A stretch of 64,000 nucleotides of DNA, taken from positions 7,121 to 71,120 of IMG/VR virus record IMGVR_UViG_3300033156_000424; one strand, written 5' to 3'. Shown here piece after piece: positions 3 through 15,519 of this stretch. Under the pieces are notes generated by a model that was given only the letters and a program-made list of their open reading frames with translations, made no database searches and was not told the origin of the DNA. The translations under genes and the position numbers were made by a program. The first letter of the stretch is position 1, and the number at the start of each line of letters is the position of its first letter. Origin of the DNA: a virus.

Positions 3-626
3 GGAGGATATATAAAACAATTACCATATAATAGGGTAAAAATATCAGAGAGAAATACAGAATATATTAATCTCACTTGTAGGTTTTATTTTGAAATTGA
101 TTATAAAGATAACATACGAAAAGAGATGAAAGAATCTTTTAAATTTGACATAATAGCTACAGATAATGGAACAACAATAACAGCAAACTATAATGTAGTT
201 TTGATGAAAGTTTCTATCCCAAGAGAAAATAATATAGGATTGTATGTAAATGATGTAAAAATAGACGAAATAAAATATGATGAAGGGGTTGAGATAAATA
301 AAACATTTGATTTTGTTATAAAGAGTCCAATAAGAAAAATGATTAATGAAAGTATTGTAAATATTTTTGATATAAATACCTATATATCATTTATAAATAC
401 ACCAGTAGAACCGAGAGAGACGTTGTGGATTATGATGTTGGTACCTTTTACAGTTGGATTTTTAGTTTCTGTGTTTATATCCACAGTTTTTGTTTTGACA
501 GCAGATGATTTGGAGTACAATAAGCGATATGTTATTATTGAAGTGTTTATTGGTTCATCTCGTGATTATAAAGTGAGAAAGAAAGAAGCTAAAGAAAGAG
601 ATGAGAGTAATGGATATTCTATATAA
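3..626 (+). CDS. membrane protein, 5'-truncated at window edge
   Basis: Frame is open from position 3, upstream of the listed ATG at 126; one hydrophobic segment (LWIMMLVPFTVGFLVSVFISTVFVL). Confidence 0.6.
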   Translation, partial: GGYIKQLPYNRVKISERNTEYINLTCRFYFEIDYKDNIRKEMKESFKFDIIATDNGTTITANYNVVLMKVSIPRENNIGLYVNDVKIDEIKYDEGVEINKTFDFVIKSPIRKMINESIVNIFDINTYISFINTPVEPRETLWIMMLVPFTVGFLVSVFISTVFVLTADDLEYNKRYVIIEVFIGSSRDYKVRKKEAKERDESNGYSI

Positions 627-825
627 ATTTAGTGAAGATGATTATGAAGAATTATATTATAGAATACGTCATAAATTAAATAATTTATATCTCCTTCTTG
701 AGACAAAGATTGATGTACAAAAAATGGGGAGAAAAATGGTATGGGAGAAGCAGAGAGCAAAGGAAAAAATAAAAATATTAGAAGATTTGTTAATAGATAT
801 GAAAGTTCCAAAATCAAATAAATAA
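601..825 (+). CDS. hypothetical protein
   Basis: ORF in tightly packed + strand early cluster. Confidence 0.5.
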   Translation: MRVMDILYKFSEDDYEELYYRIRHKLNNLYLLLETKIDVQKMGRKMVWEKQRAKEKIKILEDLLIDMKVPKSNK

Positions 826-829
826 AGGA

Positions 830-1318
830 TTGATAAAAATGATTACAGATGATGATGAAATTTTCCCAATAGAATATTATGGAAATAGTAGTAGATTTAT
901 TGATTTTAAGTTGTTTATAGATAAGAAAGAAGTTGGAGAAGTGGTTAAAATTGTATTTATAAATGATGATGTTATGGAATATACAGCAAATATAGTTATT
1001 ACTGAAGAAAACAGAGAATATATATATAAAGATGTATTAAATGTTGTTGGATTAAAGAATATCGAAAACGGAAAATATAGATTATTTGGACTTCCAATAG
1101 GTGATAAAAACTATATAACGGTAACTGGAGTGGTTGGGATGAGTGGGGTTATTATTAAATTTGAACAAAGTAGAATAGATATACATACAGTAACACATAA
1201 ACCACCTATCTATATGGAGATGGCTGTAACAAACATTGATTCATATAAAAACATTGATTCATGTGATATTGAAAAGAGTATAGAATGGAAAGAAAAAGGA
1301 TGGATAAAAGATGTATAA
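830..1318 (+). CDS. hypothetical protein
   Basis: 162-aa ORF in co-directional cluster. Confidence 0.6.
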   Translation: MIKMITDDDEIFPIEYYGNSSRFIDFKLFIDKKEVGEVVKIVFINDDVMEYTANIVITEENREYIYKDVLNVVGLKNIENGKYRLFGLPIGDKNYITVTGVVGMSGVIIKFEQSRIDIHTVTHKPPIYMEMAVTNIDSYKNIDSCDIEKSIEWKEKGWIKDV

Positions 1319-1475
1319 AGGGTCAGAATATAGAACTATGGAAGAAGTAGCTGAAGCTTGTGGTGTGTCAAGAATGACTATCCATAAAAGAATACGTGAA
1401 TGGAAAGATGTTGATATATTACCAAACATATCATTAAATATTGTGATACATAAAAAACAAAAAGGAGGCAACTAA
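1311..1475 (+). CDS. small HTH DNA-binding protein (54 aa, not in ORF track)
   Basis: Manual translation MYKGSEYRTMEEVAEACGVSRMTIHKRIREWKDVDILPN... shows a classic HTH pattern. Confidence 0.75.
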   Translation: MYKGSEYRTMEEVAEACGVSRMTIHKRIREWKDVDILPNISLNIVIHKKQKGGN

Positions 1476-1476
1476 A

Positions 1477-1833
1477 ATGATGAGAGAAAGAGATGTATAT
1501 ACTCATATAGTTGAAATATTTGATTTTCGTGGAAGAATATGTATGATACGAAGGGTTATTATGCCATTATTTAATGAAGATATTACATATCATAACGGAT
1601 ATGTTGAAAAGGCAAAGAATATGTATGGAAAAGGATATTATGATGCCAATGTTGAAGGTGTAGATGTTGGAGAAGAAATAACGTTTGATGGTTCTTGGAG
1701 TGAGTTTAAAGGCAGAGAATTTTGGGGATTTGATACGATGCACTCATATGATACAAAAGAAACACAATCACATAAAGCTGTTAAGGAAAGATTATTAAAA
1801 TTTGCTGAAGAAATCATAGCGAGTGGATTATAA
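1477..1833 (+). CDS. hypothetical phage protein
   Basis: HNGYV...EITF...WGFDTMH pattern seen in small phage proteins. Confidence 0.6.
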   Translation: MMRERDVYTHIVEIFDFRGRICMIRRVIMPLFNEDITYHNGYVEKAKNMYGKGYYDANVEGVDVGEEITFDGSWSEFKGREFWGFDTMHSYDTKETQSHKAVKERLLKFAEEIIASGL

Positions 1834-1834
1834 G

Positions 1835-1996
1835 ATGATTACAAATAAACCAAATTATAGAACAGTAAAAGAGATAGCTGATGTATGTGGTGTATCTGAA
1901 GCAACGGTACAAAGAAGACTCAAAGAATGGAAAGAAGCTGGTATTATACCTAATGTGTATTTAAGGAAGATAATAAACAATTTATTGATAGAGTGA
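1835..1996 (+). CDS. small HTH DNA-binding protein (53 aa, not in ORF track), paralog of 1311..1475
   Basis: Manual translation MITNKPNYRTVKEIADVCGVSEATVQRRLKEWKEAGIIPN... Confidence 0.75.
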   Translation: MITNKPNYRTVKEIADVCGVSEATVQRRLKEWKEAGIIPNVYLRKIINNLLIE

Positions 1997-2373
1997 AGAT
2001 GAGAAAGATGAAAGAACATTTAATTGAATATTATGAGAAAATGAGGAGAAAAGAACTTATAAGAGAGATTGAGATATTACGTGATTTGGTTTTAGAGGTT
2101 ATTGGAGACGAGAAATTATTAGAGAAGATAATCAAACTTGAACATGCGAGAACACAATATTATGAGTTACCAGAAAGCTGGGTAATTGATGATGAAGATG
2201 ATAAAGACGAAAAAATTGCTGTAAAAGAATTAATAGATTTGTTACATGAACCTCCTCTAACTCATAAAAAGAAAAGATGGTATCCATTTAAAAAAATAAT
2301 CAACTTTTTTAGAAGATTAAAAGACGATTTAGGTGTATTATCTACAATTGGAGAGTGGGATAATGAAAAATAA
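1993..2373 (+). CDS. hypothetical protein
   Basis: ORF overlapping the upstream stop codon. Confidence 0.55.
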   Translation: MKMRKMKEHLIEYYEKMRRKELIREIEILRDLVLEVIGDEKLLEKIIKLEHARTQYYELPESWVIDDEDDKDEKIAVKELIDLLHEPPLTHKKKRWYPFKKIINFFRRLKDDLGVLSTIGEWDNEK

Positions 2374-2488
2374 TATGAGAAAAAGACTTCTTTTTTTGAG
2401 AGTCAAATTATGGAAAAAAATTATAGAGTTTGCAGAAAAACGAAAAGAATATCTTTTTGATAAGTATTTTATGTATAGGTGATATAAA

Positions 2489-2719
2489 ATGTTCATAGTA
2501 TATGCTTCAGATTACGATGCGATGGAAGTGTTTGGTATATTTGATACAAAAGAAAAGGCAGAGTTTTGTTTATCTGAAGTTGTAAAAGAGGAAGGAGAAT
2601 TTGGGTTTTTTAAACCAGACCAATTTAAAATAAAAGAAATAGTAGTAAATGCAATTTATTATGATGGGTTTTTTTATATTGTTTATTTACCACAAAACGA
2701 GGAAGATAAAAATGGATGA
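2489..2719 (+). CDS. small phage protein (GIF.T.EKAE motif)
   Basis: AGGTGA RBS upstream; VFGIFDTKEKAE motif common in small phage proteins. Confidence 0.6.
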   Translation: MFIVYASDYDAMEVFGIFDTKEKAEFCLSEVVKEEGEFGFFKPDQFKIKEIVVNAIYYDGFFYIVYLPQNEEDKNG

Positions 2720-3092
2720 GGAAAGACTTGAAATGTTTAACACATTGTTGGTGTTATTAGAAACGTTTGATGAGAGAGAGATTCATAAACTTATCATTTT
2801 TGTGCAAGACCTCTTGACTCGTGAGTGGAATGAGTGTTTAAAATATGATGTAAAAACTGTTGAAGATTTCTTTACTCTTTTTAATCAGATATATGAGATT
2901 GATAGTACAGCATTTTTTAAAACACTTGACGAAAAATATATAGCTTGGGATTTTGTATCATTACCAAATGGAATGATTGCGTATAAATTATCTAATACTG
3001 GGAGAATAGAACAAAAAAGACCAAAAGATTTACATAAGAGGATAAAATTGTTGCGAAACAAAAGGTTTTTAAGAGATGGTGAGATAGGATGA
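2712..3092 (+). CDS. hypothetical protein
   Basis: Likely start MDEERL overlapping the end of the previous gene. Confidence 0.5.
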   Translation: MDEERLEMFNTLLVLLETFDEREIHKLIIFVQDLLTREWNECLKYDVKTVEDFFTLFNQIYEIDSTAFFKTLDEKYIAWDFVSLPNGMIAYKLSNTGRIEQKRPKDLHKRIKLLRNKRFLRDGEIG

Positions 3093-3286
3093 GTGAATTT
3101 GGAAAACTTGTAGAATTTTATAATAAAATAACAGTTCTTGATGTTTGTCTTCTTGAACATTTAGCTGATGAAACACCAATTATACGAATGTGTGCTAATA
3201 TATTATATAAAGAAATAGGAAAAGCAAGAGCAATAATAGATGAAACAATACAACTTATAGATAGAATAATAAAAGAAAGAAAGTGA
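3089..3286 (+). CDS. hypothetical protein
   Basis: GGTGAG RBS, ATGA overlap with previous gene. Confidence 0.55.
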   Translation: MSEFGKLVEFYNKITVLDVCLLEHLADETPIIRMCANILYKEIGKARAIIDETIQLIDRIIKERK

Positions 3287-3558
3287 TAATAATGACTAAA
3301 ATAGGAAATTATTTAAAAAATGTTATTTCAAGAATTATGGTTGCAGTTGGTTATATTGTTTGGGTTACTATAATCTGTTTAGTAGTATTACTTTTATTTT
3401 TATTATCTATTATACATATATTTATGTTACCACTTATCTGGGTTTTTGCTGGAGAGAAAAATACACAAAAAACAATAGATTGGTGGGAAAATGTGGATAG
3501 AAAAATAAATAACATCGATAGAAAAGTATTTAAATCATGTAAAGAAAAAGTAAAGTGA
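3283..3558 (+). CDS. small membrane protein
   Basis: Long hydrophobic stretch. Confidence 0.55.
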   Translation: MIIMTKIGNYLKNVISRIMVAVGYIVWVTIICLVVLLLFLLSIIHIFMLPLIWVFAGEKNTQKTIDWWENVDRKINNIDRKVFKSCKEKVK

Positions 3559-3689
3559 GAAAAATGAAAACAGTATATACACTTATCATAATATCTTTAT
3601 CTACTATTTCAGTAGTGTTATTAACACTATTCTTTGGTTGGTTAGTAGATAGAACAAGTGATAAGGGGTATTTTGATACAATAAGATAA

Positions 3690-3763
3690 GCGACCATCGT
3701 TCAACGGAAGGACAATGTACTGCCAGTACATTAACGTGGGTTCGAATCCCTCTGGTCGCACCA
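3690..3763 (+). tRNA. tRNA-Gly(GCC), intronless, CCA encoded
   Basis: Acceptor GCGACCA/TGGTCGC, D arm GTTC/GGAC, anticodon arm ATGTA-CTGCCAG-TACAT, T loop TTCGAAT, discriminator A followed by CCA. Confidence 0.95.
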
Positions 3764-3769
3764 AAAAAA

Positions 3770-3973
3770 GTGATAAAAATGAAATATTGTGATATATGTG
3801 GTAAAGAAGCAACACAAACTTGTCAGAAATGTGGAGCTGATTATTGTGATGATTGTGCTTTACCATTTGATATTGAATATGATGGGAAAGACAGATTTGG
3901 AAAAACATCAAAGATAAAACTTACCATTTATACTCAATGTCCAATTTGTCCAAAGATAAAGTGGTTTAAGTAA
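3770..3973 (+). CDS. small Cys-rich zinc-finger protein
   Basis: Four CxxC pairs. Confidence 0.6.
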   Translation: MIKMKYCDICGKEATQTCQKCGADYCDDCALPFDIEYDGKDRFGKTSKIKLTIYTQCPICPKIKWFK

Positions 3974-3981
3974 AAAACAAA

Positions 3982-5031
3982 GTGATTAAAATGAAGAAAT
4001 ATCCAAAAATACCTCATAAAACGAGGAAAGATGTAAATTTTGTTCCTTTTGAGCCAGAACATGATGTTGTGATTCAAGAGAAGGTAGATGGAGAAAATTT
4101 TAGAATACAAATAGAAAAGGAAGAAATTACCGATATGAGTTCTATGTTTAAGTTCTCATATGGAAGCAGACGAGTTGATAACATAAATGCAAATGGTGGA
4201 TTTGGAAAAATAATAGAATATTTCGAATCAGAACCGTTCATGCCAACTCATATTAGTAATTTATTTGATATAGCAACAAGAGTATATAGAACATATGTAC
4301 AAAAAATAACAGTTTTTGGAGAGTTTCTTGGAAGTCATAAACACAAGAAAATACCGTATGATAGAGCACCGAAGAACAATCTTGCTGTGTTTGATATTAT
4401 GATATCTAATGATAAGGAATATGCATTTATTCATCCAGCAAGTAATCTATTTACTCTAATTTGTGATACACTTAAAGTTGATAAAGTTCCTATACTTTAT
4501 ATGGGGAAAAGTGGATGTGGGATGCAAGATTTCATTAAACTTAATGAGAGTTTTTTTGATAAGATGAGTTATCTTGGAGGACATAAAATAGAAGGAACTG
4601 TTGCAAAAAACTATGAGAACTTTATAGACGATGAGAAAGGAGTAAAGATGGTAGATATATCTTTTGGTGGAGATGAACTTGGTCTTCCGATGATTAAGTT
4701 TGTTCAAGAACACCTTAAAGAACATGCACATGTTGAAAATATAGTTACCGATACTATTGAAGGTATAGTTAATTTCATAGCTGATAGATGTATTACTGAA
4801 GGAAGGGTATATAAAGCACTAACAAAGATAGAATTTGATGAGCAAAAGAAATGTGATAGAACAGATACACCAAAGATTATAAAAGAAGTTATGAATGATG
4901 TGCTTATAGAAGAAGATGAACATATACGAAAAATGCTTTATAAAGAATTTAAAGATAAATTTGGAAGAAAAGCGAATAAAATAGTAAAGATATATTTTAA
5001 ATTATTAGAAAAAGGATTAGAAGAAAGGTGA
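3982..5031 (+). CDS. ATP-dependent RNA ligase, Rnl2-like
   Basis: YPKI N-terminus, motif I QEKVDGEN, then FGEF, VFDI, VPIL, EGTVAK and a motif V lysine; helical C-terminal domain. Confidence 0.85.
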   Translation: MIKMKKYPKIPHKTRKDVNFVPFEPEHDVVIQEKVDGENFRIQIEKEEITDMSSMFKFSYGSRRVDNINANGGFGKIIEYFESEPFMPTHISNLFDIATRVYRTYVQKITVFGEFLGSHKHKKIPYDRAPKNNLAVFDIMISNDKEYAFIHPASNLFTLICDTLKVDKVPILYMGKSGCGMQDFIKLNESFFDKMSYLGGHKIEGTVAKNYENFIDDEKGVKMVDISFGGDELGLPMIKFVQEHLKEHAHVENIVTDTIEGIVNFIADRCITEGRVYKALTKIEFDEQKKCDRTDTPKIIKEVMNDVLIEEDEHIRKMLYKEFKDKFGRKANKIVKIYFKLLEKGLEER

Positions 5032-5231
5032 AAAACATGATAGAAAAAAGGGTTTATATAGATAAAGAAGGAGATTATTGTTTTAGATATTATAGAAAAA
5101 ACTCTACAATTGAATTACTTCATGAAAATGAAATTATTCATGTGTTACAATATGATGATATTAGAATTATTCAAGAGTTCTTTTTAGATGTAATTGAATA
5201 TATAGATAGATGTGTTGATTTAGATGAGTGA
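5028..5231 (+). CDS. hypothetical protein
   Basis: ORF with GGTGA RBS. Confidence 0.5.
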   Translation: MKNMIEKRVYIDKEGDYCFRYYRKNSTIELLHENEIIHVLQYDDIRIIQEFFLDVIEYIDRCVDLDE

Positions 5232-5356
5232 TAAAAAATGTCTCCAGAATTAATTACAGTGATATTTACTTGTGTCATAATGGGAATATTCATCTTATTT
5301 AAGATTGGAGAAATAATATATGTTATTGTAGATAACTATTTAAATTAGGTGAAAAA

Positions 5357-5617
5357 ATGTATTCAAAAAACTATGATGATATATTAGATGAGAAATTTAA
5401 AAAAGAACCAATATGTGCTAATTGTAAATATTTAAGAGTAACATATTATTTTAATCGTAATGATTATGCTTGTGCGTACGATAAAAGAAACATACATAGA
5501 TTTGGTTCTGCTGGAAATAGAAAACAATTAAGTAATATGTTAGAAGAAAGAGGATATGATTGTGATAGAGTTACTAAAGTACTTAATTTTATAGTTGAAA
5601 GAGGAATAGGAAAATGA
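5357..5617 (+). CDS. Cys-containing hypothetical protein
   Basis: AGGTGA RBS; CANC motif. Confidence 0.55.
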   Translation: MYSKNYDDILDEKFKKEPICANCKYLRVTYYFNRNDYACAYDKRNIHRFGSAGNRKQLSNMLEERGYDCDRVTKVLNFIVERGIGK

Positions 5618-5844
5618 GTGACAAAGAAAAAAGTGTTCATAAAATTCAGTTTCATCCGTTATTTAATAAGGTATTTAAACAAGTTGTTGATATAGGATAT
5701 AATCATGATGAATCATGGGAAATAACTAAAGAAATGATTGAGTTAAATAGAAAACTTTATCAATTAGAAGAATGTTTGAAGTTTTTGAAACCCCTCATAG
5801 AATTATGGGATAATGAAAAAGATGAGTTTTGGAATGATGTATAA
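5614..5844 (+). CDS. hypothetical protein
   Basis: ATGA overlap with previous gene. Confidence 0.5.
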   Translation: MSDKEKSVHKIQFHPLFNKVFKQVVDIGYNHDESWEITKEMIELNRKLYQLEECLKFLKPLIELWDNEKDEFWNDV

Positions 5845-5973
5845 TAAATGTAAAAAATGTAAATATTTAGCTCATCCGAGAATGATTAATAAGGAATCTT
5901 GGTGTATGAGAAAAAATGATTTTATATTTACAGAAGACCAGATAGATTGTGATTTATTTAAAGTAAAAGAGAA

Positions 5974-6537
5974 GTGAAGAAGATGGGACAGCAGATATAC
6001 AATAGAAAAAATAACGAAAGAGAACCAAATGATTTTTATGTAACTCCTCCAGAGACTACACGAGCACTTATGGAAAGAGAAAAGTTTGATGGACTTATTT
6101 GGGAATGTGCTTGTGGTACTGGGGAGATGGCTGAAGTTATAAAAGAATATGATTGTATGGTTTTTTCGAGTGATTTGATAGATAGAGGATATGGTCGTGG
6201 TGGAGTTGATTTTTTACAACATCCAGATGAGGATGAGGTAGAGAATATAATTACAAATCCACCATATAAACATGCATTTGCATTTGTTAAAAAAGCCAAG
6301 AAAATTGCTACAAAAAAGATAGCAATGCTCTTAAAAATAACATTTCTTGAAGGTATATCAAGATATGAGATGTTTCAAGATACAGACTTTCCTCTAAAAA
6401 TAGTATATGTTTTTTGTAGAAGACAAAAAGTAGCTAAAGAAGGTATGGAATTAAAAAATGCTGGTATGATTGCTTATGCATGGTTTGTGTGGGATAAAGA
6501 ATATAAAGGAAAACCAATAATTGAGTGGATACCATAA
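5974..6537 (+). CDS. DNA adenine methyltransferase
   Basis: DFYVTP, SAM motif ECACGTG, catalytic NPPY, YAWFVW. Confidence 0.85.
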   Translation: MKKMGQQIYNRKNNEREPNDFYVTPPETTRALMEREKFDGLIWECACGTGEMAEVIKEYDCMVFSSDLIDRGYGRGGVDFLQHPDEDEVENIITNPPYKHAFAFVKKAKKIATKKIAMLLKITFLEGISRYEMFQDTDFPLKIVYVFCRRQKVAKEGMELKNAGMIAYAWFVWDKEYKGKPIIEWIP

Positions 6538-6546
6538 CACTTCAAC

Positions 6547-6564
6547 AGAAATGTTTATATATAT
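6547..6564 (+). promoter_or_regulatory. archaeal-type promoter (BRE+TATA)
   Basis: AGAAATG-TTTATATA about 25-30 nt before the next ORF. Confidence 0.55.
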
Positions 6565-6583
6565 GATATTTTAAACGTTTGAA

Positions 6584-6784
6584 GTGATGTCAATGACTGA
6601 ATTTAGATATTATAATAAACCGGTATGTCCTAAATGTGGAAAGAAGATGATAGATGTGAGAATGTTCTTCTCTGAATGGAAGGAAAGAAATCTTTCTGTG
6701 AGGTTTTATTGTGATAATTGTGATATTCATCGATGGGTTGTTATAAAAAAAGCAAATTTGACATTTGGTGATATATATGAATAG
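6584..6784 (+). CDS. zinc-ribbon protein
   Basis: CPKCG and CDNC motifs. Confidence 0.6.
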   Translation: MMSMTEFRYYNKPVCPKCGKKMIDVRMFFSEWKERNLSVRFYCDNCDIHRWVVIKKANLTFGDIYE

Positions 6785-7019
6785 AAACACAAAAAAAGAG
6801 AATGAAGAAATATTAAACGCAATGACAGAAGAAGAAATAATGATGATGAGAAATAGATTTATCAATTTTTACTATGATGAAAAATTAAGACTTAAAGAGA
6901 CCCTTTTTTTTATATCATTATTTAACAAACAGTTAAAAGAGTTTAAAAAGAAGGAAAACAAAATAAACAGATTTAAGAAATTGGAAGAATTCATAGACAG
7001 AACATACCAAAAAGTTTAA
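6765..7019 (+). CDS. hypothetical protein
   Basis: ORF with GGTGA RBS. Confidence 0.5.
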   Translation: MVIYMNRNTKKENEEILNAMTEEEIMMMRNRFINFYYDEKLRLKETLFFISLFNKQLKEFKKKENKINRFKKLEEFIDRTYQKV

Positions 7020-7041
7020 AAATGAGTGAGAGATTACTATC

Positions 7042-7257
7042 GTGATTAAAATGAGTTCAACTGATATTAATAATTATAGAGCATGTGATGATTGTAAAGG
7101 TCTTTTTTCTACTTTGAATCTAATAGAAATAGAGACAAAGAATAAGATAATAAATAAACTTATTTGTGATGAGTGTTTAAAAATAAGAAACAAAAGAGCA
7201 TTTTTAAAGAGACAGAGAAAGGAAAGATTTAACACAATCATTGAAAAAGTGTCATAA
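7042..7257 (+). CDS. zinc-finger protein
   Basis: CDDC and CDEC motifs. Confidence 0.55.
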   Translation: MIKMSSTDINNYRACDDCKGLFSTLNLIEIETKNKIINKLICDECLKIRNKRAFLKRQRKERFNTIIEKVS

Positions 7258-7359
7258 AAAATTTACGCGTAGAAAAATTGGATTTTTTATTTTTTCAGAA
7301 TAGATGAAAGTAAAAAATTCAATTTTGAAGTGTTTAGATGAAAAAAAGAGGAGAAAGAA

Positions 7360-7551
7360 ATGAATTTTTTAACAACAAAGATACTGCGAAAGATTAAATG
7401 TAATTTTTGTACCAAAAAGACTATAAAAAAAGATAAGGGGAAGTTTGTCTGTACGAATTGTGGGATGATGTACGAGGAATGGGAGTTATGGGACATGGTT
7501 GATGAGGAAAACAAGTACAATGGGATATGGAAATATGAATATAAAAAATAA
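7360..7551 (+). CDS. zinc-ribbon protein
   Basis: GAGGAG RBS; CNFC and CTNCG motifs. Confidence 0.6.
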   Translation: MNFLTTKILRKIKCNFCTKKTIKKDKGKFVCTNCGMMYEEWELWDMVDEENKYNGIWKYEYKK

Positions 7552-7699
7552 AATAGAGATAGAGATGAGATTTTCTGAAGATGTATATGATTGTTTTGAG
7601 TATTTAAAGGATAGATTTCCAGAACTTGCTCGAAGATTTATTTCATCATATAAGAAAAACAACAATACATGGATTTGTGAGTTTAAGACGGATTGATAT

Positions 7700-7892
7700 C
7701 ATGACAAGTAGTTGTAGTAGATGTGATAAACCGTTTCAAAGAGAACCAATTAAATGTGCTGTACATAAGGGATATATTTGTATGGATTGTGTTGGTTATG
7801 TTGATAGAGAAGGACATTATTATTGTTGGGATTGTATTGAGATAGGACAAAAATATGATGAATTTAAGGAGAATGAAATAAATGTATTATAA
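7700..7892 (+). CDS. Cys-rich zinc-finger protein (start approximate)
   Basis: MTSSCSRC...CAVH...CMDC...CWDC. Confidence 0.5.
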
Positions 7893-8676
7893 AAGCACAA
7901 ACAATAGAGGTCAAAGCATAGAACTTTTTCATGTTGATTGTATAGAATTAATGAATAGCTGGGTAAGTGAATGTGAAACATGTAATGTTGGTATGTATGA
8001 TGTTATTTTTGTTGACCCACCGTTTGGTATAAATTTTAGAAATAATGTTGGATATTACAATAGAGATAATACAAATGTTATAGAATATGAAGATATAAAT
8101 CCAATAGAATATAATTATTTTACAAGAGAGTGGATTAACCTTGTGTCGTTTTTATTGAAAGATACTGGAGTGTTATGGGTTGTATCTGGATGGTCTAATA
8201 TTGATATTATTAGGTCATGGGCAAGATATTATAAACTGTTCCTTATAAATGAAGTTATATGGCATTTTCCTTTTGGTGTTTTTCATAAAGGGAAAAAATT
8301 TATATCAAGTCATTATACTTTATCATTATTTGTTAAGAATAAAAAGAAATATTTTTTTAATTCTGAAGCATTTTTCCCATTTAAGAAAGGTAAAGGAAAT
8401 AATAAAAAAAATTATGAAGATAGACAAGATGTGTGGATAATACCAAGAGAATATGTAAAGGGAAAAAAGAAAACAGCGACAGTTTTACCATATAAACTTA
8501 TTTATAAAATGTTAAAATATACTTCTAAAAGTGGAGACATTTTATTAGACCCAATGATGGGGAGTGGAAGAACATTAGAAGTAGCATATAAGTTGGGATT
8601 GAATGTTGTTGGGATAGAAAAAAATAAAAAAACGTTTGATTTTGCATATGATAACCTTAAACATCTTTTTAATTAA
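7882..8676 (+). CDS. DNA methyltransferase, beta class (N6A/N4C)
   Basis: Catalytic DPPF before SAM motif LDPMMGSG; DVW and GIE motifs. Confidence 0.9.
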   Translation: MYYKSTNNRGQSIELFHVDCIELMNSWVSECETCNVGMYDVIFVDPPFGINFRNNVGYYNRDNTNVIEYEDINPIEYNYFTREWINLVSFLLKDTGVLWVVSGWSNIDIIRSWARYYKLFLINEVIWHFPFGVFHKGKKFISSHYTLSLFVKNKKKYFFNSEAFFPFKKGKGNNKKNYEDRQDVWIIPREYVKGKKKTATVLPYKLIYKMLKYTSKSGDILLDPMMGSGRTLEVAYKLGLNVVGIEKNKKTFDFAYDNLKHLFN

Positions 8677-8689
8677 TTAAAAAAACTTA

Positions 8690-8707
8690 AAAGAAAACAT
8701 TTATAAG
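8690..8707 (+). promoter_or_regulatory. archaeal-type promoter
   Basis: AAGAAAACA-TTTATAAG, the same motif as at about 10610 and 15520. Confidence 0.65.
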
Positions 8708-8751
8708 TAACAAAAATAATAACAATATAAGAATTATGGAAGTATGATAGA

Positions 8752-9111
8752 ATGGAAGATGAATTTGTTGATATAAGCGAGACTATTGGAATAAAAGAAG
8801 ACAATGAAACCATAACTATAAGATATAGAGGAAAACAAGCCATAGAAGCTGTTGCTATGTTGAGAAGTATATATTTGACCAAGTATCATAAAGAACCAGA
8901 GTTTATTATTGTTGATGATGTAACATATCTTATGATTAAAGCAAATGTATTTAATCATAATGAAACATTCTTCTCACCAGATGATGTGTTAGACGACATT
9001 CTTGGAATGAAGATAATAAATAAGAATAATTGTATATCATTTACACAAAATGATATAACATTTATTGATAATAGTGATGGTGGAGAAGAAGATGCCGAGA
9101 TTGGTTCATAA
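8752..9111 (+). CDS. hypothetical protein resembling an isolated HK97 capsid A-domain
   Basis: EAVAML...PEFIIVDDVTY...ILGMKII...NDITFI pattern. Confidence 0.35.
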   Translation: MEDEFVDISETIGIKEDNETITIRYRGKQAIEAVAMLRSIYLTKYHKEPEFIIVDDVTYLMIKANVFNHNETFFSPDDVLDDILGMKIINKNNCISFTQNDITFIDNSDGGEEDAEIGS

Positions 9112-9910
9112 AGAAGGAAATATTATTATATATGGAGAAGATTCAAGAGTAATGTGTGAAGTTAATGATGAGTATGTAGATTCAATAATAACGTCACCTC
9201 CATATAATGTTAAGAAAAAATATATTGGTAAGAGAGAATATCATGATAATTTAAATGATTTTGAATATTTTCATATGTTATATGATATTTTTAAAGAATG
9301 TTATCGAGTGTTAAAGAAGGAAGGGGTGTTTTTTTTAAATGTTGGGTTTAACAGAGAAGATTTGAAAAAGGCATGGAAGGTTCTTGAAGTCGCTGAACAA
9401 GCTGGATTTATTTATTTTCAACCAATAATATGGATGAAATCATTTATGGGGAAAGGTCATTATAGCCCAAGTAAGAACCCAAAGCATTTTTATCTTAATT
9501 ATGAATATATATTTATTTTAGTAAAAGATGAAAAGTTTAAATTAAATGCTAAAAAAATAGGTATTCCTTATACTGATAAGTCAAATCTTAAAAGATATAA
9601 CCATTCTGTTGATTTAAGAGATGCTGGTAATGTATGGTTTATACCATATGAAACAAGAAATAAAGATAGTAGGATTTTATATCCATCTATTTATCCATTT
9701 AAACTTGTACAAAACTGTATAGATGTATTAGATAAAGATAATGGGATTATTTTAGACCCATTTTGTGGAGTCGGCACATCATTGATAGTAGCAGAGGATA
9801 ATGGGTTTGATGCGATAGGATATGATGTCACATTTAATATAGAAGGATTCAAACAAAGAAAAAAAGGATATGAGAAGTGGAAAAATAATGAGAAAAACGA
9901 TGAGAGATAG
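9092..9910 (+). CDS. DNA methyltransferase, beta class (probably N4-cytosine)
   Basis: TSPPY catalytic motif, CYRVLKKEG, GNVW, LDPFCGVGT. Confidence 0.9.
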   Translation: MPRLVHKEGNIIIYGEDSRVMCEVNDEYVDSIITSPPYNVKKKYIGKREYHDNLNDFEYFHMLYDIFKECYRVLKKEGVFFLNVGFNREDLKKAWKVLEVAEQAGFIYFQPIIWMKSFMGKGHYSPSKNPKHFYLNYEYIFILVKDEKFKLNAKKIGIPYTDKSNLKRYNHSVDLRDAGNVWFIPYETRNKDSRILYPSIYPFKLVQNCIDVLDKDNGIILDPFCGVGTSLIVAEDNGFDAIGYDVTFNIEGFKQRKKGYEKWKNNEKNDER

Positions 9911-10118
9911 AGTTATAGAAACTATTAATAATCTTCCAGATAGATTCTCATTTAAAGATATTTTAGTTTCTATTAATATAGATAAGAATGATAACAGAAG
10001 GAGAACAATATATAAAATTCTTGGAGAAATGATGATTGTAGGTAAGATACAAAAAGCAAAAGTTATACTTGATGACCAAAAAAAGAGTTTGTATGAGAAG
10101 GTAAAAGAGGGGTGTTAA
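9870..10118 (+). CDS. winged-helix-like protein
   Basis: FSFKDIL...TIYKILGEM..GKI..K...LY pattern. Confidence 0.45.
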   Translation: MRSGKIMRKTMRDRVIETINNLPDRFSFKDILVSINIDKNDNRRRTIYKILGEMMIVGKIQKAKVILDDQKKSLYEKVKEGC

Positions 10119-10122
10119 AGAG

Positions 10123-10593
10123 ATGAGAATTTTAAGTGGTAAGAGAGCAGAGAGATATCAATATATACAACACATAGCAGATAAAAAACAAATATGTAAT
10201 GATGGGATAATTTTAACATTTGGTGCGGTATTTGATGTATTAGATATACCAATGGAAAAAAACATAGAAAATATACGATATAAACATGTACAACCAATGG
10301 TAAAAAATGGAAAAGCTGTATTGATGACAAATGGAACATATCTATTTGGGATAAATGAAAAATTCTCATTAAAGATACATGATGGATTTTTAAAAACAGA
10401 TAAAAAAGTATTTGGATATATTGTTCCTTTAGATAGTTGGATAAAAAGAGGTCATTCAGTTGAAAACAAAATAATTAACTGGGGGTTCGAAGGATATGAT
10501 ACTGTGTTAGTATCATATAATTATTCTGGGGAATTGTTGTTAAATATTCCTTTTGCAAAAGTTATGTTTATTGAATACGAAACTTTAGAATAG
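10123..10593 (+). CDS. degenerate dCTP deaminase/dUTPase-fold protein
   Basis: SWIKRG, INWGFEG and FAKVMF resemble the SSLAR.G, IDPGF.G and IAQLVF motifs; catalytic Arg/Asp appear altered. Confidence 0.6.
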   Translation: MRILSGKRAERYQYIQHIADKKQICNDGIILTFGAVFDVLDIPMEKNIENIRYKHVQPMVKNGKAVLMTNGTYLFGINEKFSLKIHDGFLKTDKKVFGYIVPLDSWIKRGHSVENKIINWGFEGYDTVLVSYNYSGELLLNIPFAKVMFIEYETLE

Positions 10594-10609
10594 AATAAAA
10601 AAGAACTTA

Positions 10610-10626
10610 AGGAAACATTTATAAGG
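10610..10626 (+). promoter_or_regulatory. archaeal-type promoter
   Basis: AGGAAACA-TTTATAAG. Confidence 0.65.
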
Positions 10627-10687
10627 TATAATTGTATCTGTGAATTAATTTAAAATGTACAAAAAACATAAAGAAAGTGAATGAAAA

Positions 10688-12079
10688 ATGGTAGATAAAT
10701 ACAAAAAAATTTTAAATAAGATAAGTCTTGAAGAATTTGTCGAGGAAGTACAAAATCAAGTGAATGCTAAATTTGATGCAGAGTCTCTCTCACAGATTGA
10801 TAAAGGAAGGATAGAAAAAGTTGCTGAAGAAGTATATACGCATCCAATTTATTCAACAAAGAGGATTGTTACTGGATTAAGTAAAGCATTGCGTGATGTT
10901 GGAAAGACAATTATTAAGGCTGAAAAAATTGTAGAAGGATATTATATTGGGAGTCAAGACCAAATTAATCCGAGAAAAGAAACTGAACCAAGCAGACAAT
11001 CAGTGATATTGTTTGATGATGAGAATGAGGAACTTGTAGAAGTTACAGTTTTTGGTCATGGTGCTTTGAGAATTATTGATGATTTAAAAACAAGCGAGAA
11101 AGGAGAGTTTGTTTTTGGAAAGAAATATAGAATGTATTGTAAAATCTATGAAGCTCATGGTACATATACTGGTGTATATATGAAAGAACTTGACAATGTC
11201 ATGGATGTAGAGAAATTCTATACATTTTTAAAGACAAACGCACTTCAACCAAGCGAGATAACGAGAGATAATCTCTACAAAACTGTTATTATAACATCTG
11301 ATATTAGATATGTATCTCCATTAGAAATAAGAGGAGAAGATAAATCTCAACCACAAAAGGATTTAGTAGTTGGGGGAGAAGTGCAGTATGATACTGTTAC
11401 CGGTCTTCCTATAAAGGTATATCCTATTGTTGATATTGGATATTATCCTCTTGTGAGTGGGAGACTTGATGAGCACCCAGAACAACCATCATTTACGGCA
11501 AGAGTTAAACTCTGGAGAGAAGACGTCATTGAAGGGGATGATGAGGAAAAGAATTATACAGAACTCATGTTCTATCCACAGAGATTGGGACAGATACGTG
11601 TCTCTATTGATGGATTAAATGACCTTCTTGTAAAAGACAATATACTTGAGTGTCCTCCAACAGAACAAGTTGAGATATTCAGTGATGAGGTACTACAGAG
11701 AGAAATAATTGCAGTAGGAAAGGTCTCACAATTTAACAAAGACAACAAAGGACAGCCTATAAATTGGGTGAAGATTAATACAGTGTTACTCATAGATAAC
11801 AAAAAGATGGAAGACAGTTTAGAAGGTGTAACAGTAGAACCAGTGACAGATAGTGTTGTTGAAGAAATAATATCATCTGGGGATTATGATAATCTTGGAG
11901 ATGATAAGCTTAAAGAGTTAAGAGCAATTTTATCAGACAGTTCTGTTGCGATGCTTGGAGAAACAAACTACGATGAACTTAAACAGACTGGGAGACTCGA
12001 AAAAATCGAATGGTTAGACGATTCCTATCGTACAATTATCAATGATTTATTAAAAGAAGAGGGAAGATTCTCTCTTTAA
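10688..12079 (+). CDS. hypothetical replication-module protein, possibly an OB-fold ssDNA-binding protein
   Basis: Acidic, beta-rich 463 aa with its own promoter and T-rich terminator; upstream of the Sak4-like ATPase. Confidence 0.35.
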   Translation: MVDKYKKILNKISLEEFVEEVQNQVNAKFDAESLSQIDKGRIEKVAEEVYTHPIYSTKRIVTGLSKALRDVGKTIIKAEKIVEGYYIGSQDQINPRKETEPSRQSVILFDDENEELVEVTVFGHGALRIIDDLKTSEKGEFVFGKKYRMYCKIYEAHGTYTGVYMKELDNVMDVEKFYTFLKTNALQPSEITRDNLYKTVIITSDIRYVSPLEIRGEDKSQPQKDLVVGGEVQYDTVTGLPIKVYPIVDIGYYPLVSGRLDEHPEQPSFTARVKLWREDVIEGDDEEKNYTELMFYPQRLGQIRVSIDGLNDLLVKDNILECPPTEQVEIFSDEVLQREIIAVGKVSQFNKDNKGQPINWVKINTVLLIDNKKMEDSLEGVTVEPVTDSVVEEIISSGDYDNLGDDKLKELRAILSDSSVAMLGETNYDELKQTGRLEKIEWLDDSYRTIINDLLKEEGRFSL

Positions 12080-12096
12080 TTTTTTTTATTTATTTT
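12080..12096 (+). terminator. oligo-T archaeal terminator
   Basis: Long T tract directly after the stop codon. Confidence 0.5.
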
Positions 12097-12487
12097 GGTG
12101 ATAATGATGAGAGATGTTAATGAAAGGAATAAACTTATTGGTCAGTTGTTATCTGATATTACAAACAAAATCGATGAAGCTAAAAATAGTTTTGAAAATG
12201 AGATGGAAAATATAGAAAAAAATGAAGAATTATCTAAAAGTGAGAAAGAAAAAAAAATATATATTAATGAGATAAAATATTTGGCTAAAAATGAAGTTAT
12301 GAGAGATATTTACTCATCAATAGAAAATGAGTCAAAAAGAGTATTCTTAAGTATAGATGATATTATTGTTATGTTTATAAAAACAGTAGATAAAGAGTTA
12401 GGTGCATTAAGAAAACAATTATCTTTAGATTTTAGTAATGTTGTAAGAGCAATAGAAAAACTTGATAAAAAGTTGGGTAGAAAATGA
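12095..12487 (+). CDS. coiled-coil hypothetical protein
   Basis: GGTGA RBS; helical and charged. Confidence 0.55.
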   Translation: MVIMMRDVNERNKLIGQLLSDITNKIDEAKNSFENEMENIEKNEELSKSEKEKKIYINEIKYLAKNEVMRDIYSSIENESKRVFLSIDDIIVMFIKTVDKELGALRKQLSLDFSNVVRAIEKLDKKLGRK

Positions 12488-12655
12488 GTGACAAAGAGCA
12501 TGATAAAAAAAGTCTTAATATATTTGTAGCTAAATTACTAAAAGAAATAAGAATAACATCAGAAGTAAGCTATATGACAATGGATATTCAAACATCATTA
12601 AGACAAATAGCCAACTGTTTAACTTTTGAAATATTGAGAGATGAGTTGATGAAAG

Positions 12656-13510
12656 ATGAGTGAAGTACAATTTAAGTCATCTGAACATATTATAACAAGA
12701 GAATTTGCATTGAAGAATTTTTTCTTTAAAGTTCTTGTATATGGAGAGACAGATATTGGAAAGACATATTTAGGTGTATCTGCATTTCTTATGGACAGAG
12801 AAAAAGAAACATATATGTTCATATTTCCAACTGATACAATTGAGAATGTTGAGGAAGTTTTAAAACAACTCTTAACGAAAGACCAATTAATGAGAGTTAA
12901 TGCACCAAGAGATAATGAGGGGAGAATGGTATCATTAAAAACATATAAAGATATTATAAAAAGAATGGTTGAACTAACAAAATGGACAAAAGAAAATGAG
13001 GATAAGAGATTAGTTATACTTGTAGATAATGCAGATGGTATAGAAGAAATATATCTCAATTCTCATTTTGATACGCTAAAGTATGATACTCCGAGACCAA
13101 CAGATTGGGGTAAAGCAAGAACAAGAATGATTAGAGAGTTTGTTATTCCATTAATGGATATGAAGGCTGATGTAATTTTTGTGAGTAGTGAAGAAGATAT
13201 TTATCCAGAGAGTGATGACCCCTATTTGAAACCAACTGGCATTACAGATTGTACTCTTGGTGGTGGGAGTAAGAAAAGTAAAGATAAGTTTAAAAGAAAA
13301 TTCAATCTTATATTTAATTTACAAAAGAGATTTGTAACAGACCCAGAAAGATTGTGTGTTGTAAATGTCATTAAAAAGATAAAGTTAGCAGATGACCCAA
13401 AGAAATGGATGAAAACAATAGAATTGTATGGTAATGATTGTAATGACATGAGAAGGATATATAAGGAAATATTATATAGACAAAAGGTAAGTAGAGGAGA
13501 GACAAAATAA
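12656..13510 (+). CDS. P-loop ATPase, AAA_24/Sak4-like
   Basis: KVLVYGETDIGKT Walker A, ILVDN Walker B, DWG motif. Confidence 0.7.
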   Translation: MSEVQFKSSEHIITREFALKNFFFKVLVYGETDIGKTYLGVSAFLMDREKETYMFIFPTDTIENVEEVLKQLLTKDQLMRVNAPRDNEGRMVSLKTYKDIIKRMVELTKWTKENEDKRLVILVDNADGIEEIYLNSHFDTLKYDTPRPTDWGKARTRMIREFVIPLMDMKADVIFVSSEEDIYPESDDPYLKPTGITDCTLGGGSKKSKDKFKRKFNLIFNLQKRFVTDPERLCVVNVIKKIKLADDPKKWMKTIELYGNDCNDMRRIYKEILYRQKVSRGETK

Positions 13511-13607
13511 TAAAGATACGATAAACTCTTAATATAGAAACCCTAGTACTTCTTCGGAAGATGGGAAGTCTAACGCGTTAGCAAAGAGGTCGCTATATCT
13601 TTATTAT
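13507..13607 (+). ncRNA. BHB-closed hairpin, unit 1 (predicted 70-nt excised RNA 13525-13594)
   Basis: ATAATAAAGATA-CGAT-AAA-CTCTT ... AAGAG-GTCG-CTA-TATCTTTATTAT. Confidence 0.8.
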
Positions 13608-13685
13608 AAGATGCGATAAACCTCATTATAAAAAAATAGGAGCTTGAAATCGCGGCATTTTTTATAATGGGGGTCGCAACATCTT
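13608..13685 (+). ncRNA. BHB-closed hairpin, unit 2 (predicted 59-nt excised RNA 13620-13678)
   Basis: AAGATG-CGAT-AAA-CCTCATTATAAAAAA ... TTTTTTATAATGGGG-GTCG-CAA-CATCTT; compensatory G-C pair relative to units 1 and 3. Confidence 0.8.
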
Positions 13686-13785
13686 TACTGTAAGATACGA
13701 CAAACCTCATGCGATTGAAAAGATAGTAAGCTTGAAACCGACAGTCGGAGTTCTTTCAGAATGAGGGTCGCTATATCTTGTGGTG
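13686..13785 (+). ncRNA. BHB-closed hairpin, unit 3 (predicted 69-nt excised RNA 13704-13772)
   Basis: AAGATA-CGAC-AAA-CCTCAT ... ATGAGG-GTCG-CTA-TATCTT, with a G-U-rich outer extension. Confidence 0.8.
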
Positions 13786-13790
13786 AGCAT

Positions 13791-14156
13791 ATGATTAACT
13801 TTGAACGGCTTTCTTCAATAGAAAAGAAAAGTGTATTGAAGAAGATTAAAGAAACTGGAAATTATAATAATATAACATATAAAGGAAAGAAGATTATATT
13901 TGGAGAAACAGTAGTGCTTGGATTTGTTTGTACAAATAATAAATGTAATGCTTTTCATAAATTTAATATTCATCCATCATCATTGAGATATGTTGTTGAT
14001 AGACATCCATGCAGTAGATGTAATTCAGATAGTTATCTTAAATTTATTATGGAAGATAAGTTTGAAAAGAACATTGGAAGATATCTTAATAAAGGTGGAA
14101 CATTATTAGAATATTTTATAGATGAGAAAACAGAAGAAACTATGGATGAATATTGA
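13791..14156 (+). CDS. zinc-binding hypothetical protein
   Basis: GGTGAG RBS before the ATG at 13791; CTNNKC and CSRC motifs. Confidence 0.6.
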   Translation: MINFERLSSIEKKSVLKKIKETGNYNNITYKGKKIIFGETVVLGFVCTNNKCNAFHKFNIHPSSLRYVVDRHPCSRCNSDSYLKFIMEDKFEKNIGRYLNKGGTLLEYFIDEKTEETMDEY

Positions 14157-14169
14157 ACTATTGAAAAAA

Positions 14170-14186
14170 GGGAAAAACTTATAAAT
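14170..14186 (+). promoter_or_regulatory. archaeal-type promoter
   Basis: GGAAAAAC-TTATAAAT. Confidence 0.55.
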
Positions 14187-14213
14187 CAAAAATTATATGT
14201 TGAGTTGATTAAT

Positions 14214-14606
14214 ATGATTGATTGGAATCAAGCACAGTTTTTTATACAACTATCAGTATATATTGGTATAATGGTAGGTACAGCAGTATATGTTTATATG
14301 AGAAAGAAAAAAGGAAAAGACAGTCCTCCAGAGTTAATGCAACTATTAACTGGACAACAAGAAGCGATTATAAAGTGGTTTTGGAGAGTGATGGAAGATG
14401 GACTTATAACTATTGATGAAGCCCATGAATTAAAAGAGTTGGTTGGGCAAGGATATAATTCTGTATTAAATATGATTATATCTCTTTATGGGATAAAAGA
14501 TGAGCAATTAGCTGTGTTACAACCATTAAAACCAGACGAGATACCTCAAGTTGATGAGAATCCTCAAGAAGAACCTCAAGAAGAAGTTGTTGAAGAGCCT
14601 ACATAA
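14214..14606 (+). CDS. single-pass membrane protein with acidic tail (holin-like?)
   Basis: N-terminal TM followed by RKKKGK; E/P-rich C-terminus. Confidence 0.5.
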   Translation: MIDWNQAQFFIQLSVYIGIMVGTAVYVYMRKKKGKDSPPELMQLLTGQQEAIIKWFWRVMEDGLITIDEAHELKELVGQGYNSVLNMIISLYGIKDEQLAVLQPLKPDEIPQVDENPQEEPQEEVVEEPT

Positions 14607-14608
14607 AA

Positions 14609-15454
14609 TTAGAGTAATCTTCTTTTTTTATTACTTATTTTTCTTCTCCTTAATTTAGGATTATTTATATTATTATGAACAAAATTGTTTAAATCTCCAG
14701 TTAGACCAGAAAATTCGAAAAGATAGTCTTCTTTTGGGAGAGTGTTTTTTGATTTGATTTTCTTGTAATAGAGTGGAACTAAAACAACTAAAAGTAGAAC
14801 AATACCAACTAATGTAGCAACTGATAATGGTGCGTTGTTTATAATATAAGAGATAAAAACAGATGGATTTTGAACGAATACCTTTATAACATTTAATAAT
14901 ATTGAAATGATGTTATATGTTATAATACCAATAATCCCATATTTCTTTGCACCGTTGAATAAGAGTTTGATTGCATTTTGTACTGCAATACGTAACTGCT
15001 CAACTTGGGCTCGTGTATTAACATGTTCCATACGTATGTCTGCTATCTCTCTTTCAATGAGAAACATTCGTTGAGAGGTGACACCATTTGAAATCTGTTT
15101 CACATACTTTGATACGGCTTCAATAACATTAATAACTTTAAATGGTTTCTCAACTACTTCCATAGCACCAGCTTGAAGCATTTCTTCTCTTCCTTTTGGG
15201 CTATAACCAGTAATACCTATAATCTTTGCTAAATTGTCAATCTGTAATATTTGTCGTATTGCTTCAGCACCACTCATATCTGGCATGACATAGTCCATAA
15301 CAACAATATCTGGTCTATATTTATCATATAATTTAACAGCCTCCTTCCCAGTTCTTGCTTCCATTACTTCAAAATAATCACCAAGTGTGGGAGTGAGAAT
15401 GTTAAGGACATTGTCATTATCATCTGCTATAAGTATGAGTTGTGTGCATTGCAT
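14609..15454 (-). CDS. response-regulator receiver domain fused to a coiled coil and two TM helices
   Basis: ILIADD, PDIVVMDYVMPDMSG (phospho-acceptor Asp), ITG, AGA, KPF; two hydrophobic segments in the C-terminal part. Confidence 0.85.
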   Translation of the reverse strand: MQCTQLILIADDNDNVLNILTPTLGDYFEVMEARTGKEAVKLYDKYRPDIVVMDYVMPDMSGAEAIRQILQIDNLAKIIGITGYSPKGREEMLQAGAMEVVEKPFKVINVIEAVSKYVKQISNGVTSQRMFLIEREIADIRMEHVNTRAQVEQLRIAVQNAIKLLFNGAKKYGIIGIITYNIISILLNVIKVFVQNPSVFISYIINNAPLSVATLVGIVLLLVVLVPLYYKKIKSKNTLPKEDYLFEFSGLTGDLNNFVHNNINNPKLRRRKISNKKRRLL

Positions 15455-15519
15455 AAACAAAATATATTTGCAGTATTTTATAAACATTTCGTAATAAATT
15501 ATGTGGTTGAAAATACTTC

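Follow-up and report, generated by a model that had tools for sequence, protein, structure and literature searches.

Why does a viral gene block carry, in the gap between two genes, three back-to-back RNA motifs of the bulge-helix-bulge (BHB) type, and can these be acted on by EndA, the tRNA-splicing endonuclease of the host? The question is raised by an array at positions 13507-13787 on the + strand of the window analysed here, a stretch of 64,000 of the 71,120 bases of IMG/VR virus record IMGVR_UViG_3300033156_000424, which is estimated to be 59% complete. An initial annotation had reported three such units at this place and interpreted them as viral RNAs released by EndA and perhaps circularised by the RNA ligase RtcB; the three-unit array is hereby confirmed, while the interpretation is partly supported. 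An accessible strict BHB in a transcript is a known substrate of EndA whatever the sequence, and we put the probability that the units of the array are cut by host EndA at about 60%, the evidence being their fold, their strand specificity, their rarity and the manner in which they have diverged from one another.

All three units share a frame consisting of 14 nucleotides (nt) on the 5' side, AAGATR-CGAY-AAA-C, and 14 nt on the 3' side, G-GTCG-CWA-YATCTT, which together enclose an interior hereafter referred to as the cargo, and the unit cores are found at 13513-13601, 13608-13685 and 13692-13779, all on the + strand. When the + strand of each unit is folded singly, the minimum free energy (MFE) structure of all three consists of an outer helix, a central helix of 4 base pairs (bp), two 3-nt bulges and an inner helix, the bulges being located on opposite strands and each of them 3' of the central helix. 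In unit 1 (13507-13607), the outer helix is formed by 13507-13518 and 13596-13607 (12 bp) and the central helix by 13519-13522 and 13589-13592, the bulges are 13523-13525 and 13593-13595, and with an inner helix of 5 bp the unit comprises 21 bp in total including one G-U pair. Unit 2 (13608-13685) has a shorter outer helix (13608-13613 with 13680-13685; 6 bp), a central helix of 13614-13617 and 13673-13676, bulges at 13618-13620 and 13677-13679 and a longer inner helix of 15 bp, giving 25 bp in total with two G-U pairs. The outer helix of unit 3 (13684-13787) extends beyond the core to 14 bp, five of them G-U pairs, and is followed by the central helix 13698-13701/13767-13770, the bulges 13702-13704 and 13771-13773 and an inner helix of 6 bp, amounting to 24 bp. 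The strict BHB motif (hBHBh') is described as two 3-nt bulges on opposite strands with a 4-bp helix between them (PMC3978253, represented here, like the other papers cited, by excerpts), and this is what both the single-unit MFE folds and a geometric scan return for all three units, the flanking helices of the strict form being present as outer helices of 12, 6 and 14 bp and inner helices of 5, 15 and 6 bp. The folding energies are -25.0, -25.0 and -22.9 kcal/mol for units 1, 2 and 3, with z-scores of -3.15 and -4.21 for the first two.

The motif is furthermore specific to the + strand, since none of the three minus-strand folds keeps the 3-4-3 geometry, a loss which fits the presence of G-U pairs in the helices. 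It is also rare in its strict form. When the 71-kb record was scanned for BHBs with at least 21 bp paired and at most five G-U pairs, exactly the three units were found on the + strand and none on the - strand, and 20 dinucleotide shuffles together gave three matches. The initial annotation was thus right as to both geometry and polarity. The frame sequences likewise occur nowhere else in the 71,120 nt of the record, the 5' pattern yielding three exact copies among seven matches with up to two mismatches (1.96 expected from shuffles) and the 3' pattern three exact copies among six such matches (0.70 expected). The GC content of the array is 37.5%, compared with 30% and 25% in the two neighbouring genes.

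Since we are dealing with copies of a single unit, the pattern of their divergence is a better argument than the mere repetition of the geometry. Between units the 28-nt frames are identical at 25, 27 and 24 of 28 positions, and the four substitutions found in them are all structure-neutral: two changes in unit 2 that together turn an A-U pair of the outer helix into a G-C pair, this being the compensatory change already pointed out in the initial annotation; in unit 3, the replacement of a U-G by a C-G pair; and a single change located within a bulge. The 11 core pairs are consequently paired in 33 of 33 cells, and for all 15 pairs tested 91.1% of 45 cells can pair, compared with 33-47% when the partners are slid against each other, while the observed values were reached in 18 of 500 shuffles. 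The cargoes behave differently. That of unit 1 resembles those of units 2 and 3 at the level of shuffled sequence (33 identities vs 32.4 +/- 2.0 and 37 vs 35.6 +/- 2.1, respectively), whereas units 2 and 3 have homologous cargoes (identical at 40 of 60 positions vs 30.4 +/- 2.0 after shuffling) and their inner stem in common. The claim that the inner stems differ in sequence between units therefore does not hold for units 2 and 3, and the picture of constant signals around variable cargo, for which a CRISPR array had been invoked, holds for the frame and for the cargo of unit 1 but only in part for the other two cargoes. A frame that is kept while its cargo diverges indicates that processing is the selected property, and as read from these sequences the pattern says that it is the processing frame, not the cargo, that selection would keep.

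EndA cleaves after the second base of each bulge, in accordance with the canonical 37/38 position of tRNA introns. Applied to the array this rule predicts three excised + strand RNAs, the intervals of which had been correctly counted before: one of 70 nt (13525-13594), one of 59 nt (13620-13678) and one of 69 nt (13704-13772). The first is predicted to be branched, has a GC content of 43% and contains no tRNA, C/D box or open reading frame (ORF) of more than six residues, even when read as a circle; the second would form a long A/U-rich stem with a 22-nt loop and contains a run of six T at 13658; and the third carries the cargo that is partly homologous to that of unit 2. The T run was considered as a special terminator and rejected, as the sense strand of the gene block has 20 such runs in 14.6 kb. 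A tRNA intron, a permuted tRNA or a split tRNA can likewise be dismissed, since there is no tRNA body around the motif, as the initial annotation had also held, or in the circles: ARAGORN and Rfam report only a tRNA-Gly gene at 3690-3763, and no tRNA gene was found in the array with the intron option or in the three excised intervals when doubled. With the C box taken as RUGAUGA and the D box as CUGA, neither motif is present in any of the three cargoes read as circles, and a C/D box small RNA was rejected as well. None of the cargoes contains an ORF of more than eight residues in linear or circular reading, and two 8-nt CRISPR RNA handles are absent from the array. A 20-nt stretch at 63283-63302 matches a cargo at 90% but lies inside a gene and looks like chance. 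The hexamer TTGAAA is mildly enriched, occurring three times in 267 nt where 0.29 are expected, but two of the three occurrences are at homologous positions, and a CRISPR RNA handle in the array, though conceivable, is not supported.

Two further pairings of the array may be mentioned. A BHB could form across units, with unit 2 contributing the 5' arm and unit 3 the 3' arm, a 7-bp inner helix and seven G-U pairs in all, and this would excise 13620-13772 as one RNA of approximately 153 nt. In addition, when the array is folded in a context of 351 nt, it is enclosed by an 8-bp helix (13494-13501/13809-13816) between the purine-rich end of the upstream gene and the pyrimidine-rich early part of the downstream gene, which may be due to chance.

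The array fills the gap between these two genes, both of which belong to a co-directional block of + strand genes at 126-14606. The upstream gene (12656-13510, +) encodes a Sak4-like or AAA_24-like ATPase (PHROG 124, E 1.3e-07; Pfam AAA_24, with an E of 1.3e-05 that does not reach the curated cut-off), and its stop codon at 13508-13510 falls within the outer helix of unit 1 in its extended form. The downstream gene (13791-14156, +) encodes a small, Cys-rich, zinc-finger-like protein without any family match. Because the upstream stop codon precedes the first cut, joining of the exons bridges no ORF, in agreement with the initial annotation. We infer that the array is transcribed, cut and ligated and that it has some role, and the course of events may be envisaged as follows. 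A module of approximately 85-95 nt would have been inserted between co-directional genes of an archaeal tailed virus and multiplied to three copies, each of which would fold into a strict hBHBh' when the gene block is transcribed. Host EndA would then recognise the shape and cut after the second base of each 3-nt bulge, releasing RNAs of 70, 59 and 69 nt that host RtcB would close into circles, and the flanks would either be joined again, so that three small hairpins remain, each with a loop of 7 nt, or be left cut, in which case the downstream cistron would become separated. The role that we favour is EndA-dependent processing of the intercistronic junction, which would also yield stable small RNAs. 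The benefit to the virus may thus lie in the cutting of the message at the junction or in the released RNAs, or there may be nothing more to it than the harmless removal of a selfish insert.

For the units to be cut by EndA the host needs to be an archaeon, the EndA family having been detected in only the 4 archaea among 14 control genomes, and judging from the proteins encoded in the record it likely is one. The viral polymerase is of archaeal PolB1 type, matching the model NF004417 (NCBIfam) over its full length with an E value of 7.6e-159, and its best solved relative by far is PDB 1s5j (E 1.9e-100), which we take to be Sulfolobus PolB1, followed by many family B polymerases including one from Pyrococcus abyssi. 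The best match of the large terminase subunit (TerL) among GenBank phages is furthermore found in Halogranum tailed virus 1. Neither EndA nor RtcB was found in the virus record, which is 59% complete. The record does contain an Rnl2-like, ATP-dependent RNA ligase (3982-5031, +; Pfam RNA_ligase E 6.6e-14; TIGR02307 E 1.1e-07, below cut-off; its Atlas neighbours are viral RNA ligases) directly downstream of the sole tRNA gene, tRNA-Gly(GCC) at 3690-3763, and this enzyme may serve in tRNA repair. A ligase homologue of approximately 33-35% identity is present in a related virus that has no array, and the ligase is therefore not tied to the BHB units. Other genes of the window include two N6/N4 DNA methylase genes within 2 kb (7882-8676 and 9065-9910, both +; Pfam E 1.8e-34 and 3.4e-41), a response-regulator receiver protein encoded opposite to its surrounding genes (14609-15487, -; Pfam Response_reg E 1.6e-21; weak homologue of 25% identity in the related virus), and a metallophosphoesterase (26485-27636, +) that weakly matches NF003118, the model for the small subunit of archaeal DNA polymerase II (E 1.2e-07, falling far short of the cut-off).

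The kinship of the related virus, hereafter G001, is genuine: the order of genes is shared, as are PolB (50% identity), TerL (48%), sheath (43%) and primase-helicase (40%). Five of the six proteins found in the search for relatives of the ATPase are indeed such relatives, with identities of 81, 73, 73, 60 and 53%, and the comparison at the DNA level covers the 60% relative only, which is the one in G001. The protein encoded downstream of the array is 27% identical to its G001 homologue (E 7e-08), the alignment starting at residue 2, and had no relative besides itself in a set of 5.8 billion proteins. As far as the two sequences tell, the array is an insertion relative to G001, or else it was lost in G001, where a geometric scan revealed no strong BHB anywhere. 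The ATPase scan of IMG/VR returned one relative, the G001 contig, among 37 pattern matches, and the scan of metagenomes returned the same contig among at least 598 matches listed, while no ATPase relative was found in a single-protein scan of IMG/VR, among 555 GTDB matches or in GenBank phages. Scanning with the polymerase as a single protein gave no relative, and an alignment of two polymerase sequences gave eight loci of which only G001 is close; the seven distant ones (101,743 bases) contained two weak, A/T-rich matches at a looser threshold and nothing resembling the frame. A covariance model built from the three units (R1) recovered unit 2 but missed units 1 and 3, even though these were among its own sources: of its five matches, four correspond to unit 2, namely on both strands of the window and of a duplicate locus (L001), and the remaining one, at 62563-62586, is weak (E 2.4). 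The model thus detects such units poorly, and little weight attaches to its returning nothing from G001.

Several observations weigh against the notion that the units are cut by EndA. Firstly, the minimal geometry (an outer helix of at least 5 bp, an inner helix of at least 4 bp and any number of wobble pairs) is frequent in DNA of 30% GC, with 126 matches on the + strand, 79 on the - strand and 83-114 in shuffled sequences, and as it is this common by chance in A/T-rich DNA, geometry alone proves nothing. Secondly, the whole fold of unit 3 is not unusually stable (z -1.03; 27 of 200 shuffles fold equally well), and in the 351-nt context, where units 1 and 3 retain the motif, unit 2 favours a competing, near-isoenergetic fold in which the central helix gains 2 bp and the 3' bulge is absorbed. 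Thirdly, the array is found in a single genome among those searched. In G001 the downstream gene's homologue overlaps the ATPase gene by 4 nt, leaving neither gap nor array, and three pattern scans of IMG/VR each gave 0 matches; the two pattern matches in GTDB were rejected, being chance matches within genes of bacterial records and devoid of inner or central helix. Furthermore, Rfam yields nothing for the cargo at gathering score and only matches at chance level (E of at least 1), and no significant match or complementarity to the cargo exists within the virus record (G000) or G001, the best E value being 0.083. Finally, it is by protein similarity that the virus is assigned to archaea, the polymerase scores 530 bits where the curated cut-off of the family is 780 bits, and the terminase and portal matches other than that to the Halogranum virus are mostly to bacterial phages.

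If the units are indeed processed, the released RNAs might themselves be the purpose. The array could then be regarded as a viral production line for circular RNAs, in which one EndA/RtcB frame is reused around differing cargoes and the circles act in trans, for instance as decoys or sponges that would occupy RNA-binding proteins or the RNA-guided defence of the host, or in which, as the initial annotation had also considered, the substrates divert EndA and RtcB from the maturation of host RNA. We consider such a production line unlikely, and that the released RNAs act in trans at all appears doubtful to the same degree.

Somewhat less probable still is the explanation that the units are cis-acting intercistronic hairpins which are not cut by EndA, and which affect the stability of the mRNA or control translation of the downstream gene, the ribosome-binding site of which they would mask. 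The putative site, GGTGA at 13782-13786 (+), is indeed predicted to be paired within the outer helix extension of unit 3, the probability of being unpaired amounting to 0.01-0.11 per base in unspliced RNA. These values are 0.01-0.31 in spliced and ligated RNA, and it is in the lone 3' cleavage fragment that the site becomes largely free (0.07-0.97). The masking part of the helix is however weak, five of its 14 pairs being G-U, and the hairpin that remains after splicing has an energy of -8.4 kcal/mol. Furthermore, only unit 3 touches the ribosome-binding site and units 1 and 2 are without such a target, and a masking hairpin requires neither two 3-nt bulges spaced 4 bp apart nor the retention of these in all three units.

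That the repeats function in DNA, as sites for protein binding or recombination or as a miniature inverted-repeat transposable element multiplied in place, is improbable. In favour of this notion it may be said that inverted repeats bound each unit, that the array is an insertion relative to G001 and that a conserved frame around a varying interior resembles some mobile elements. The ends of the units are however not colinear inverted repeats, since past the initial 6 bp there is an offset of 3 nt on either side, and it is precisely this offset that gives rise to the two bulges. The G-U pairs of the RNA are moreover A-C mismatches on the other strand, and the motif is lost there. There is no direct target-site duplication to be seen around the units, and no dispersed copies were found in the 71-kb record, in G001 or in IMG/VR, the two GTDB matches being bacterial and without the geometry. 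An element with terminal inverted repeats, of the miniature type or otherwise, was therefore rejected. The last alternative, that the frames encode a repeated peptide in a 46-residue minus-strand ORF (13710 to 13570), is highly improbable even though two 39-nt junction repeats lie 84 nt apart in the same frame of this ORF and give two similar 13-residue stretches, since these repeats differ at six sites of which one is synonymous and five fall in residue-changing codons with no sign of purifying selection, no ribosome-binding motif precedes the ATG, the first and last frames fall outside the ORF, and the ORF, which opposes a long block of + strand genes, probably arises from the repeats as an artefact.

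With EndA processing as the favoured explanation, it remains to compare the array with known systems. Both the motif and its enzymology are known, and what is new is the setting, which is viral, intercistronic and tandem and combines a constant frame with diverged cargo. BHBs outside tRNA and rRNA have been documented in very few mRNAs, those of cbf5 and HVO_1309 being named in the excerpted text (PMC7714728), and full-text literature searches, as far as the passages returned go, gave no description of BHB introns or BHB arrays in the genome of a virus, which agrees with the initial annotation's statement that it knew of no free-standing BHB array in an archaeal virus. The passages on viruses in PMC4090602 concern only integration into tRNA genes. 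One close case is the 5' untranslated region of the HVO_1309 mRNA of Haloferax volcanii, which according to these excerpts contains a single BHB intron of 46 nt that is cut by recombinant EndA and has been recovered as a circle (Schwarz et al. 2020, PMC7714728). Like the array, this intron is a non-coding, BHB-flanked segment of an mRNA outside of tRNA and rRNA, and its function is not known, but it is single, belongs to a cellular gene and has been demonstrated experimentally, whereas the array consists of three tandem modules with a common frame, is viral, lies between two cistrons and is described from its sequence. The cbf5 pre-mRNA of Crenarchaeota also carries a BHB intron (Watanabe 2002; Yokobori 2009, PMC2738675; both as cited in PMC7714728), and here too an mRNA is processed by the tRNA-splicing machinery, as is proposed for the array; the cbf5 intron does however interrupt a coding sequence and its splicing restores the frame, while the array bridges no ORF. 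Archaeal tRNA introns, including the tRNA-Trp intron with its C/D box small RNA, are reported in the excerpted passages to be excised and circularised and can be functional small RNAs (PMC7714728, PMC12558985), but although the cutting motif is the same, the array has no tRNA body and its cargo no C/D boxes.

With regard to the succession of several motifs, the processing stems of archaeal rRNA operons provide a parallel, since consecutive BHBs are there found in one transcript and each enclosed RNA, pre-16S and pre-23S, is freed as a circle (PMC12558985, in the parts excerpted). These operons nevertheless enclose rRNAs of 1.5-3 kb in long stems, whereas the cargoes of the array are 59-70 nt in length and belong to no known family. 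CRISPR arrays are similar by analogy only, in that a single transcript carries constant signals for processing with differing inserts between them; the CRISPR signals are direct repeats while those of the array are inverted pairs folded around the inserts, the window contains no cas genes, and the cargoes of units 2 and 3 have a common ancestry. If the array is what we believe it to be, archaeal viruses apply the tRNA-splicing enzymes of the host to their own messages. The array would in addition be a compact substrate of approximately 350 nt with three sites, a compensatory variant already built in and a site for which a competing fold exists, with which both the substrate rules of EndA on non-tRNA RNA and the dependence of viral gene expression on EndA can be directly tested. 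Finally, engineered BHB cassettes have been used for expression of circular RNA in human cells (HARBOR preprint, 10.64898/2026.10.12.758436, likewise seen as excerpts), where the BHB frame serves as a general-purpose carrier by which any insert becomes a circular RNA, much as is suggested for the frame of the array, and although the one is a synthetic construct and the other natural viral DNA, the array would, if processed as proposed, be a natural counterpart to these cassettes.

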